Source of the DNA: a bacterium | Lineage (GTDB): Bacteria > Patescibacteriota > Minisyncoccia > Phycocordibacterales > PALSA-1337 | DNA length: 27,710 bases | Assembly: GCA_037127615.1 (NCBI GenBank) | Contig: JBAXYC010000001.1 | Coordinates: 1-27,710, forward strand | Direction of reading: 5' to 3' | Part shown: piece by piece, positions 17,972 to 26,063 of the stretch | Layout of the letters: the number at the start of each line of letters is the position of its first letter | Position numbering within the stretch: position 1 is the stretch's first letter | Notes under the pieces: model-generated | Database searches by the model: none | The model's input: only the letters and a program-made list of their open reading frames with translations | What the model was told of the DNA's origin: nothing | Program-made: the position numbers and the translations under genes

Positions 17972-17986
17972 AAATAAACAAAATAT

Positions 17987-18101
17987 GCGCGGTTAGGTGT
18001 TTTGGTAGTTAAGTCAAAGTCATTTGCGCGGTTAGGTGTTTTGGTAGTTAAATCGAGTTATATGCGCGGTTAGGTGTTTTGGTAGTTAAATCAAGTTATA
18101 T
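17987..18101 (+). repeat. Three tandem 38-39 nt units that mimic the tRNA-Val 5' end
   Basis: GCGCGGTTAG+GTGTTTTGGTAGTTAA+12-13 nt, starting at 17987, 18026 and 18064. The tRNA itself starts with GCGCGGTTAG at 18102. Confidence 0.95.
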
Positions 18102-18173
18102 GCGCGGTTAGCTCAGTTGGTAGAGCATCCCCTTGACGTGGGGAGGGTCAGAGGTTCGAATCCTCTATCGCGC
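18102..18173 (+). tRNA. tRNA-Val (GAC)
   Basis: Acceptor GCGCGGT/ATCGCGC, D-arm GCTC-AGTTGGTA-GAGC, anticodon loop TT-GAC-GT and T-arm AGAGG/CCTCT. The anticodon stem is imperfect. Confidence 0.88.
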
Positions 18174-24551: not shown

Positions 24552-24627
24552 TGGTGCCAAGAACCAGATTCGAACTGGTGACCCTTCCCTCTTCAGGGGA
24601 ATGCTCTACCAACTGAGCTATCTTGGC
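24552..24627 (-). tRNA. tRNA-Phe (GAA)
   Basis: 76-nt cloverleaf with acceptor GCCAAGA/TCTTGGC, anticodon arm TTCCC-CTGAAGA-GGGAA and encoded CCA. Confidence 0.95.
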
Positions 24628-24704
24628 GAAGACTCTGATTTAACTACCAAAACACCTATCTTGGCGAATACTTTAACTTAACTACCAAAACACCTATCTT
24701 TAGC
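24628..24704 (-). repeat. Two tandem ~38 nt units that mimic the tRNA-Phe 5' end
   Basis: Minus strand reads GCTAAAGATAG+GTGTTTTGGTAGTTAA+GTTAAAGTATTC, then GCCAAGATAG+GTGTTTTGGTAGTTAA+ATCAGAGTCTTC, then the tRNA (GCCAAGATAG...). Confidence 0.95.
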
Positions 24705-25062: not shown

Positions 25063-25137
25063 TGGTGCCACCAGCAGGAATCGAACCTGCATCTAGAGCT
25101 TAGGAGTCCCTTGTTCTATCCATTGAACTATGGCGGC
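25063..25137 (-). tRNA. tRNA-Arg (CCT)
   Basis: Acceptor GCCGCCA/TGGTGGC, anticodon loop CT-CCT-AA, T-arm GCAGG/CCTGC and encoded CCA. A31-G39 is mismatched. Confidence 0.88.
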
Positions 25138-25772
25138 GTTGATTCCAACTTAATATAATCAATCATACTAATCACTGACTTGAAATACGCTGCAGCTCTT
25201 ACTATTCGTACTCGACACATTCCATATATTAGCCTCTTATTATCACCTCCCTTCAGAATTTCATAACCAACCAGCTGTTTTTGGTCAATATTCAGAAAAT
25301 TTGTCCAAAAAAATATAGTTTTTTGAATATCCATTCCTGCAAATATCCGTAGACCAAGCCTTATTTCACTTTTCGGTACCCCCAATGTATACAGCCCCTT
25401 AAGAAAAGATCTAATAAGATAAGGGTCTCCGTTGATTAAGTTAAATTCCCCTTTTGACCCTTCGCCCCAATAGATAGCAGCGAGAACAAGTAGTCTATCT
25501 CGATCAGAAATCTCACCTAACGTACTAGCGACCCGCTCCTTTGCTTCAAGCCATTTTTTTCTTGCCCGCTCTTTGCTGCCTCCTTGTTTTACCCTCAGGG
25601 CATCTCGAAACTTTGGTAACACCTCAACTTCTTTAATATATTTAAACACTGTTCCTGATGCACGTCCAGTGATTTTTTTGATTTCAGGCAAAGAATGCCC
25701 AGTCTTCCTTAAACTGACTATTCGCCTTATTTCTGTTTTGGTAAGAGATTTCTTTGATGGAGTAAAAAGTAT
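25128..25772 (-). CDS. HTH plus degenerate LAGLIDADG-like protein overlapping the tRNA-Arg 5' end
   Basis: AAIYWGEGSK helix, NGDPYLIRSFL and YGMCRVRI. The frame stays open upstream of TTG 25691 through an HTH (EIRRIVSLRKTGHSLPEIKKITGRASGTVFKY) to ATA 25772. The start codon is uncertain. Confidence 0.65.
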   Translation of the reverse strand: MLFTPSKKSLTKTEIRRIVSLRKTGHSLPEIKKITGRASGTVFKYIKEVEVLPKFRDALRVKQGGSKERARKKWLEAKERVASTLGEISDRDRLLVLAAIYWGEGSKGEFNLINGDPYLIRSFLKGLYTLGVPKSEIRLGLRIFAGMDIQKTIFFWTNFLNIDQKQLVGYEILKGGDNKRLIYGMCRVRIVRAAAYFKSVISMIDYIKLESTPP

Positions 25773-26008
25773 TACTTAATCCCGAGCTCTGCAGCAATCT
25801 TTTCTTGGTCAAAACCGACAGTAATATCGTCTCCTACGATGATGACTGGCACGCCCATCTGGCCTGTCTTGTCGATCATTTCCTTGCGCCTCTCCATATC
25901 TGAGGCGACATTGTATTCAGTAAAAGCGACATTGTTTGCAGTAAAAAAATCTTTTGCAGCTTTGCAATAAGTACAAGTTGGTGTTGAATATATTGTTACA
26001 TTTTTCAT
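25772..26008 (-). CDS. Glutaredoxin / NrdH-like redoxin
   Basis: IYSTPTCTYC, GQMGVPVI and VGFD. Start is ATG 26008 or 26017. Confidence 0.92.
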   Translation of the reverse strand: MKNVTIYSTPTCTYCKAAKDFFTANNVAFTEYNVASDMERRKEMIDKTGQMGVPVIIVGDDITVGFDQEKIAAELGIK

Positions 26009-26063
26009 AGTGCGCATATTGTAACATATGTATAAAAATTGGAAACCAAAAGTAGAAAAAACT

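Follow-up and report, generated by a model that had tools for sequence, protein, structure and literature searches.

A phylum-wide Patescibacteria family of LAGLIDADG-like proteins encoded next to tRNA genes, with a probably decaying member at tRNA-Arg(CCU)

We analysed a stretch of 27,710 nucleotides (nt) of a Patescibacteria genome (GenBank assembly GCA_037127615.1, contig JBAXYC010000001.1, positions 1 to 27,710; hereafter the window), in which an open reading frame (ORF) for a helix-turn-helix (HTH) and LAGLIDADG-like protein runs head to tail into a gene for tRNA-Arg(CCU). With a probability that we put at roughly 0.6, this ORF is a probably decaying member of a family of the free-standing homing-endonuclease type that extends across the phylum. 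Its relatives lie against co-oriented tRNA genes almost without exception, every branch keeps to a single kind of tRNA, and the slot before tRNA-Arg(CCU) is found occupied, decayed or empty in related genomes. A literature search found no published description of the family, and the endonucleases that it found for the candidate phyla radiation were only those in rRNA introns. The features of the ORF and its tRNA are as follows.

25131 to 25775, minus strand: HTH and single-LAGLIDADG-like ORF of the Arg(CCU) clade, 215 codons, no canonical start at the N-terminus of the family
25128 to 25130, minus strand: stop codon TAG, which is nt 8 to 10 of tRNA-Arg(CCU)
25635 to 25739, minus strand: N-terminal three-helix HTH of the resolvase, Tc3 or Hin type, residues ~13 to 47
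25137 to 25514, minus strand: C-terminal LAGLIDADG-like domain, residues ~88 to 213
25452 to 25472, minus strand: YWGEGSK motif that closes the LAGLIDADG-type helix, with Glu105 at 25463 to 25461
25063 to 25137, minus strand: tRNA-Arg(CCU), called by both ARAGORN and Rfam

A LAGLIDADG-like gene fused to tRNA-Arg(CCU)

Searches of the window protein against Pfam, NCBIfam and PHROGs returned nothing, or HTH pieces only, and a single-sequence search of the PDB gave no match. Homologs are abundant (79 clusters in a 90% database and 959 representatives in a 50% library at E ≤ 0.001); all of them are unnamed, and the few that carry a source label are from Patescibacteria. An AlphaFold (AF2) model built from 22 homologs reached a predicted local distance difference test score of 91.6. 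When residues 88 to 213 of this model were compared with 48,161 PDB chains by a method independent of Foldseek, I-DmoI came out on top (Z 7.5, root-mean-square deviation 2.5 Å over 83 residues), followed by WhiA in second place and by I-Vdi141I, E-DreI, I-Tsp061I, I-CeuI, I-MsoI and I-CreI; about a dozen LAGLIDADG entries besides I-DmoI were among the top 50. Residues 6 to 51 matched the HTH domains of resolvase, Tc3 and Hin.

I-DmoI was also matched by a sequence profile of 68 members drawn from 21 tRNA-specific branches (E 9.4e-6). In the profile alignment the family motif LYWGEGxK lies on the second LAGLIDADG motif of I-DmoI; counted along it, Glu105 falls on Glu117 and Lys108 on Lys120, which we take to be active-site residues of I-DmoI. 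Five residues, Tyr102, Glu105, Gly106, Trp157 and Gly185, do not vary among the 68 members. The model has the LAGLIDADG core fold (alpha-beta-beta-alpha-beta-beta-alpha), with a helix that ends in the catalytic acidic residue. The HTH and LAGLIDADG-like character given to the ORF in a preliminary description of the window is thus upheld, with I-DmoI the best match by structure and by profile, and the predicted fold and the profile together characterise the family as a divergent single-domain LAGLIDADG protein, unmodelled in Pfam, with an N-terminal HTH and a preserved catalytic residue. Having one such domain per protein, it would have to act as a dimer.

The ORF is open from 25775 to 25131 on the minus strand, and its C-terminus (...ESTPP) is followed by TAG at 25130 to 25128. 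The first ten bases of the tRNA are GCCGCCATAG; CCG CCA TAG are its nt 2 to 10, so that TAG is U8-A9-G10 and the overlap between ORF and tRNA is 10 nt. The preliminary description had read the stop in this way, and the translation and the ARAGORN and Rfam calls agree with it. This tRNA-Arg(CCU) is the sole copy found by ARAGORN in the assembly. It is uninterrupted, and its anticodon arm carries the AGGGA / CTCCTAA allele rather than the CC-G-TCCT allele. Rfam found no introns in the window, and the ORF is not intron-encoded.

The 5' end of the ORF has fared less well. The start previously placed at 25772 is not a start codon; no ATG, GTG or TTG precedes the TTG at 25691, which falls inside the HTH. 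Homologs start with MxKxxLT, aligned with TPSKKSLT of the window protein, and the codon in the position of the homologs' ATG is ACT (25763 to 25761), 8 nt past the stop of an upstream glutaredoxin-like gene. A promoter region of ~60 to 90 nt and the start codon are absent from this copy, which is therefore most likely no longer expressed as a full protein; it is a 5'-truncated member of the family that is probably decaying or dead. Its closest homolog (P0002) shares 64% identity with it.

Adjacency to tRNA genes, tRNA specificity and patchy distribution

A scan of one genome per species yielded at least 483 relatives of the Arg-type protein, and the best 80 loci were analysed. A tRNA-Arg(CCU) gene lies immediately downstream on the same strand in 79 of these 80, the exception being cut by a contig end. 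Phylum-wide, a profile biased towards the Arg type was run on a sample of 401 genomes, and 100 of the resulting matches were fetched for their tRNA context: a co-oriented tRNA abuts 90 of them, or 95 when tRNAs split by introns are counted. The survey for tRNA adjacency that the preliminary description called for thus came out in its favour. Within the window's genome (747 kb), a long frame runs into the 5' end of only 3 of 34 tRNAs, namely Arg(CCU), Arg(UCG) and Gln(UUG), and these three frames are exactly the three family matches of that genome. The abutment of gene and tRNA is far beyond chance. On other contigs of the same genome, one paralog (locus L082, C116:944-1660) runs into tRNA-Gln(UUG) and stops at nt 13 of it, and another, with a longer N-terminus (L083:1285-2166, contig C55), runs into tRNA-Arg(UCG) and stops at nt 8.

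Where the stop falls varies widely. Among 78 Arg-linked homologs it lies at nt 8 in 14, at nt 36/37 in 12 and at nt 43/44 in 15; the rest use a few other internal positions or, in ~25 cases, end 1 to 8 nt upstream of the tRNA. Altogether the stops span tRNA nt -64 to +49 and use all three frames. TAG at nt 8 to 10 is carried by about half of the 34 tRNAs of the window's genome and, since homolog stops vary in position and frame, it is the first stop met in one of three frames. The preliminary description had seen in it a junction shared with repeat arrays; it is instead an incidental by-product of a zero-spacer junction. The junction itself is conserved: projected onto 165 loci, the conserved core of the protein ends at a median of 4 nt ahead of tRNA nt 1 (interquartile range -7 to +3). 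The stop is often inside the tRNA, so gene ends are mis-called, and members, for which there is no Pfam or NCBIfam model, are routinely annotated as "hypothetical".

At least 21 kinds of tRNA are linked to family members, the commonest being Gly GCC, Gly UCC, Ile UAU, Trp, Met, Gln UUG, Arg CCU, Val GAC and Lys CUU. Mapped onto a tree built from 168 proteins, the 21 tRNA labels need 20 changes, the minimum possible, and the 84 Arg(CCU) proteins group together in one branch (support 100). A given branch thus goes with a single tRNA kind.

The family is unevenly distributed. The Arg-biased profile found a match in 91 of the 401 phylum genomes, with up to 7 copies per genome, and a broad profile found 1 to 6 copies in each of 30 of the 61 genomes of the window's order. 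At the slot between the glutaredoxin-like gene and the tRNA in this order, 17 tRNA-Arg(CCU) loci comprise 14 empty sites, 2 decayed fragments (51 amino acids, E 1e-16; 90 amino acids, E 4.5e-39) and a single full frame, that of the window. In one empty site (L192) the glutaredoxin stop is followed by 88 nt with a hairpin and a -10 box and then by a tRNA 96% identical to that of the window. The same glutaredoxin neighbour is shared by 32 Arg-clade loci elsewhere, with a spacer of ~55 to 120 nt before the gene. All three copies of the window's genome are damaged: the window copy has neither start codon nor spacer, the Gln(UUG)-linked copy has TAA at codon 8, and in the Arg(UCG)-linked copy LYSGKVSG replaces the catalytic motif, with loss of the Glu. 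Such a pattern of apparent invasion, decay and loss would be expected if the gene were a selfish endonuclease and not a host factor. The family behaves like an autonomous element, as the preliminary description had proposed, and like a dispensable one.

Eight contigs with the gene-tRNA cassette (L006, L022, L020, L052, L053, L071, L074 and L077) are labelled Nanoarchaeota, Woesearchaeota, Bdellovibrionales or Gammaproteobacteria, which is probably mis-binning or automatic mislabelling.

How are the gene and its tRNA expressed? A -10-like box begins 12 to 13 nt before the ATG in 64 of 160 loci and a Shine-Dalgarno motif is present in only 6, implying an mRNA without a leader whose 3' part reads on into the tRNA. 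For genes that stop within the tRNA, cleavage by RNase P would leave a stop-less mRNA. As a test of whether a gene depends on its own tRNA, the cognate codon was counted; it is not enriched in family genes (AGG 15.8 versus 12.2 per 1,000; other clades deviate either way). Two further features lie upstream of the window copy.

25772 to 26017, minus strand: glutaredoxin-like gene, the conserved upstream neighbour of the slot
26018 to 26045, minus strand: sigma-70-like promoter (TTTCCA, 16 nt, TACAAT with TG), the only one found upstream of the tRNA on this strand

No terminator was found between this promoter and tRNA-Arg(CCU), so glutaredoxin gene, ORF and tRNA probably share one transcript, and the tRNA is probably made from a precursor of ~1 kb. 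The extended -10 box abuts the first ATG of the glutaredoxin-like gene; translation of that gene therefore probably starts at the second ATG (MKNV...), on a leaderless mRNA.

Half-tRNA relics, alleles and introns as clues to a possible target

The Arg clade preserves traces of the tRNA upstream of the gene. In 15 of 80 Arg loci, against ~1 expected, the 100 nt before the gene contain a significant copy of the 5' half of the tRNA, always at about -85 to -50 relative to the gene. This relic corresponds to tRNA-Arg nt 1 to 36 and ends in ...CCGTCCT, with the -35 hexamer beginning at its last T. Fainter traces, reading GGATAGA ... GTCCT and then TTG or TAG, can be made out in many further loci. 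A relic of the 3' half downstream of the tRNA occurs in 3 of 84 loci and is not a feature of the family. Tested as a target-site duplication, tRNA nt 1 to 12 were not enriched near gene starts beyond the nt 1 to 36 relics and real neighbouring tRNAs. At L071 (1406-1498) two tandem partial copies of the tRNA-Arg 5' end precede the gene promoter, one of nt 1 to 21, identical to the local tRNA, and one of nt 1 to 36, an arrangement reminiscent of the tRNA-start arrays of the window. At L231 (G276:C23:17471-18569) a tRNA-Arg(CCU) relic of a different allele, nt 1 to ~46, lies ~115 to 45 nt before an intact tRNA-Arg(CCU) that has no endonuclease gene; such scars can therefore stand alone, and this one could stem from allele replacement or gene loss.

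The relics differ from the adjacent functional tRNA in the anticodon stem and at nt 32, and there they match an allele, type B, in which nt 30 to 36 read CC-G-TCCT. Type B is found at 5 of the 14 empty sites of the order and in none of 84 gene-linked tRNAs; in the phylum sample it accounts for ~62 of 150 tRNA-Arg(CCU) genes by a hand count of those listed. The Fisher p is 3e-15, uncorrected for relatedness. In the single GTDB family f40, the allele search pattern matched one occupied genome (G209), which is non-B, and the empty genomes comprise six with type B and three with other alleles. Anticodon-arm alleles of tRNA-Arg(CCU) differ sharply even within single GTDB families (G32 with a C-rich 5' strand versus C32 or U32 with a G-rich 5' strand), an unusual turnover for a tRNA stem.

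A second kind of change in the same place is an intron. Group I introns interrupt the anticodon loop of the gene-adjacent tRNA in at least 4 to 6 of 100 loci: four of 205 to 260 nt score above the Rfam RF00028 gathering threshold, and two more loci have inserts of the same size. The interrupted tRNAs are Phe, Thr, Trp and one unnamed tRNA, and they lie at the following positions, with L120 and L121 as further loci.

L099:1111-1430
L137:1140-1399
L140:84-361
L161:101-389

The introns reside in the neighbouring tRNA and not around the family gene; tRNA-Leu(CAA) and tRNA-Lys(UUU) also have introns with no family gene adjacent. Judged from these sequence patterns, the enzymes may recognise the anticodon arm of the tRNA gene, and occupied genomes may be protected by a changed stem or by an intron. 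The anticodon arm is a natural inverted repeat, which would suit a dimer.

The repeat arrays of the window do not lead to the same place. The units before tRNA-Val (17983-18111) and tRNA-Phe (24618-24700) each repeat tRNA nt 1 to 10 and then depart, so that the earlier observation of a divergence right after TAG at nt 8 to 10 is correct. None of the 180 family loci from other genomes contains their 16-nt core, save for a weak match with two mismatches in L060; it forms arrays in 2 of the 61 genomes of the order, versus 30 of 61 with the family. Within the window's genome arrays lie at tRNAs Val, Phe and Thr, and family genes at tRNAs Arg, Arg and Gln. Another genome of the order has the core, as a C-variant, three times with a 56-nt period near tRNA-Val(UAC) (L205, G424:C18:4986-5112), its unit being longer than the 38-nt unit of the window's genome. 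No link by sequence or position between arrays and gene was found, and their kinship is conceptual only: both involve partial copies of a tRNA 5' end in a tRNA leader.

Known systems, rival explanations and a possible mechanism

The family resembles I-DmoI and I-CreI in its core fold and in a helix motif that ends in the catalytic Glu followed by Lys, and it has a single domain per protein, as in homodimeric I-CreI. It differs from them in that it is neither intron- nor intein-encoded, sits in tRNA leaders, has an extra N-terminal HTH and, in the model, an extra helix between the third and fourth strands, and is not detected by Pfam LAGLIDADG models. WhiA (DUF199) likewise combines LAGLIDADG-derived domains with an HTH. 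WhiA, however, is a conserved single-copy regulator in which the LAGLIDADG domain occurs twice, the HTH is C-terminal and the catalytic acidic residues are lost. Members of the family have the domain once, behind an N-terminal HTH and with an invariant Glu, and they are patchily distributed in several copies; we do not count the family as WhiA. Nor is it a group I intron ORF, the window having no intron and the introns of relatives lying in the neighbouring tRNA.

Elements that integrate into tRNA genes do so by means of tyrosine integrases and carry a duplicate of the tRNA's 3' part, by which the tRNA is restored. The Arg clade is similar in that the inserted DNA is flanked by a partial tRNA copy and, at its other end, by an intact tRNA, with the break in the anticodon loop, but here the 5' half (nt 1 to 36) is duplicated, the insert is a single gene of ~0.7 kb and there is no integrase. 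In collaborative or trans homing, free-standing endonucleases are reportedly encoded beside ORF-less group I introns, as with mobE / I-TevIII of phage T4 and F-CphI of a cyanophage. The tRNA-Phe, tRNA-Thr and tRNA-Trp loci show the same arrangement, an ORF-less group I intron in the presumed target beside the gene; those cases differ in that they concern phage protein-coding genes and enzymes of the HNH or Endo VII type, and most tRNAs linked to the family are intron-free. The nearest lifestyle is that of SegB of phage T4, a free-standing GIY-YIG homing endonuclease encoded in the T4 tRNA gene cluster, whose recognition site includes a conserved tRNA stem-loop motif and which spreads itself together with neighbouring tRNA genes (PMC2330249). 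SegB differs in its GIY-YIG fold and in being a single phage gene that has no tRNA-specific clades and no head-to-tail fusion to one tRNA. The LAGLIDADG-like fold rules out membership in the Seg/Mob-type phage homing endonucleases (GIY-YIG or HNH), and no phage record was matched; the family may work like those enzymes without belonging to them.

Each branch is dedicated to one tRNA gene, here tRNA-Arg(CCU), and resides in its 5' leader, usually transcribed from its own promoter into a leaderless mRNA with the tRNA directly behind it. If the family is of the homing-endonuclease type, the enzyme would recognise its cognate tRNA gene in genomes with no copy of the endonuclease gene and cut the DNA there, within the anticodon arm or close to it, and repair from the gene-bearing copy would then install both the gene and an uncuttable tRNA, which would be either a different allele or a tRNA split by a group I intron. 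Several observations weigh against this reading. On the side of the fold, Foldseek found no significant match in the PDB (the best was IspF, E 0.02), the structural Z-scores are moderate, staying below 8, and the matches at E ≤ 0.01 for the 68 members, among the 25 families listed, were to HTH families, with none to a Pfam LAGLIDADG model. At the target, half-tRNA relics are clear only in the Arg clade, and protection by allele in gene-bearing genomes with an intact tRNA rests on a correlation that relatedness could inflate. As to mobility, tblastn against phage records found no copies, and the occupation of one slot in distantly related taxa would equally agree with an old gene that was inherited vertically and lost many times; gene identity does not track the identity of the neighbouring glutaredoxin and so does not decide between vertical and horizontal descent. 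Gene remnants were found at none of 9 non-B empty sites, so that past occupancy, and loss after invasion, are unproven there.

We consider it rather unlikely that the protein is instead a domesticated DNA-binding regulator specific for one tRNA gene, which would control the gene-tRNA operon with its LAGLIDADG domain as a scaffold, as in WhiA, and the upstream half-tRNA as operator. Such a role would agree with the strict match of one clade to one tRNA, with co-transcription of gene and tRNA from one promoter, with occupancy of the slot in many lineages and with the rank of WhiA as second-best structural match; that the half-tRNA relic is kept exactly at the -35 box across deep divergence also suggests a function. 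Yet the catalytic Glu and Lys are kept in 68 of 68 sampled members, unlike in domesticated proteins of the WhiA type, and searches of the order and phylum samples did not find the family in roughly half and three quarters of the genomes, respectively. One and the same slot can be empty or contain a remnant, the tRNAs function without the gene in most genomes, and the genes show no enrichment in cognate codons.

The preliminary description had envisaged an autonomous element with an enzyme directed at the 5' ends of tRNAs, at the nt 10/11 junction, with the 38-nt arrays as its non-autonomous relatives or scars. The break from the tRNA after TAG at nt 8 to 10 in both the window stop and the array units speaks for this model, as do the partial tRNA 5' copies upstream of some family genes, in tandem at L071, the one genome with a relic beside an intact, gene-free tRNA-Arg, and the existence elsewhere of Val(GAC), Phe(GAA) and Thr(GGU) clades. 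It is nevertheless improbable, given the spread of stops from nt -64 to +49 in all three frames, the lack of enrichment of tRNA nt 1 to 10 upstream of the genes once the nt 1 to 36 relics are set aside, and arrays that are rarer than the family, sit at other tRNAs in the window's genome and lack their core at family loci elsewhere. Nothing indicates that tRNA 5' ends as such are acted on; it is to the anticodon loop within the tRNA gene that the clues lead. Of that earlier interpretation, the fold, the adjacency and the autonomy are supported, and the TAG junction, the 5'-end action and the link to the arrays are not. An ordinary hypothetical gene that lies beside a tRNA by chance, with an overlap due to genome compaction, has next to no chance of being the explanation. 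Unrelated genes can abut tRNAs, as at L197, where the glutaredoxin stop is at position -1 of tRNA-Arg, but the homolog survey refutes this account, with adjacency in ~95 to 99% of 180 sampled homologs, 21 kinds of tRNA and a tRNA identity that maps perfectly onto the tree.

Returning to a free-standing homing endonuclease, we offer a more detailed scheme that is speculative and has less than an even chance of being right. A dimer would cut the pseudo-palindromic anticodon arm of one allele, and the gene would enter at nt 36/37 together with a fresh 5' part of the tRNA, so that the insertion heals itself and the tRNA is rebuilt intron-free. The displaced 5' half might be recycled as promoter and operator, immunity might come from the changed stem or from an ORF-less group I intron spread by the enzyme, and the tandem arrays might be by-products of repair or decoys.

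If these enzymes are active, Patescibacteria would harbour a radiation of 21 or more lineages of nucleases, every one adapted to a tRNA gene of its own. They would form a natural library of compact DNA recognition modules, programmable by evolution, for very conserved sequences. They would be a case of a selfish gene that lives in an essential single-copy RNA gene intron-free, by riding in its leader and rebuilding or replacing the tRNA. Their activity would also explain the turnover of alleles in tRNA anticodon stems, and it would make the family a plausible mobility partner for those bacterial tRNA group I introns that have no endonuclease of their own.

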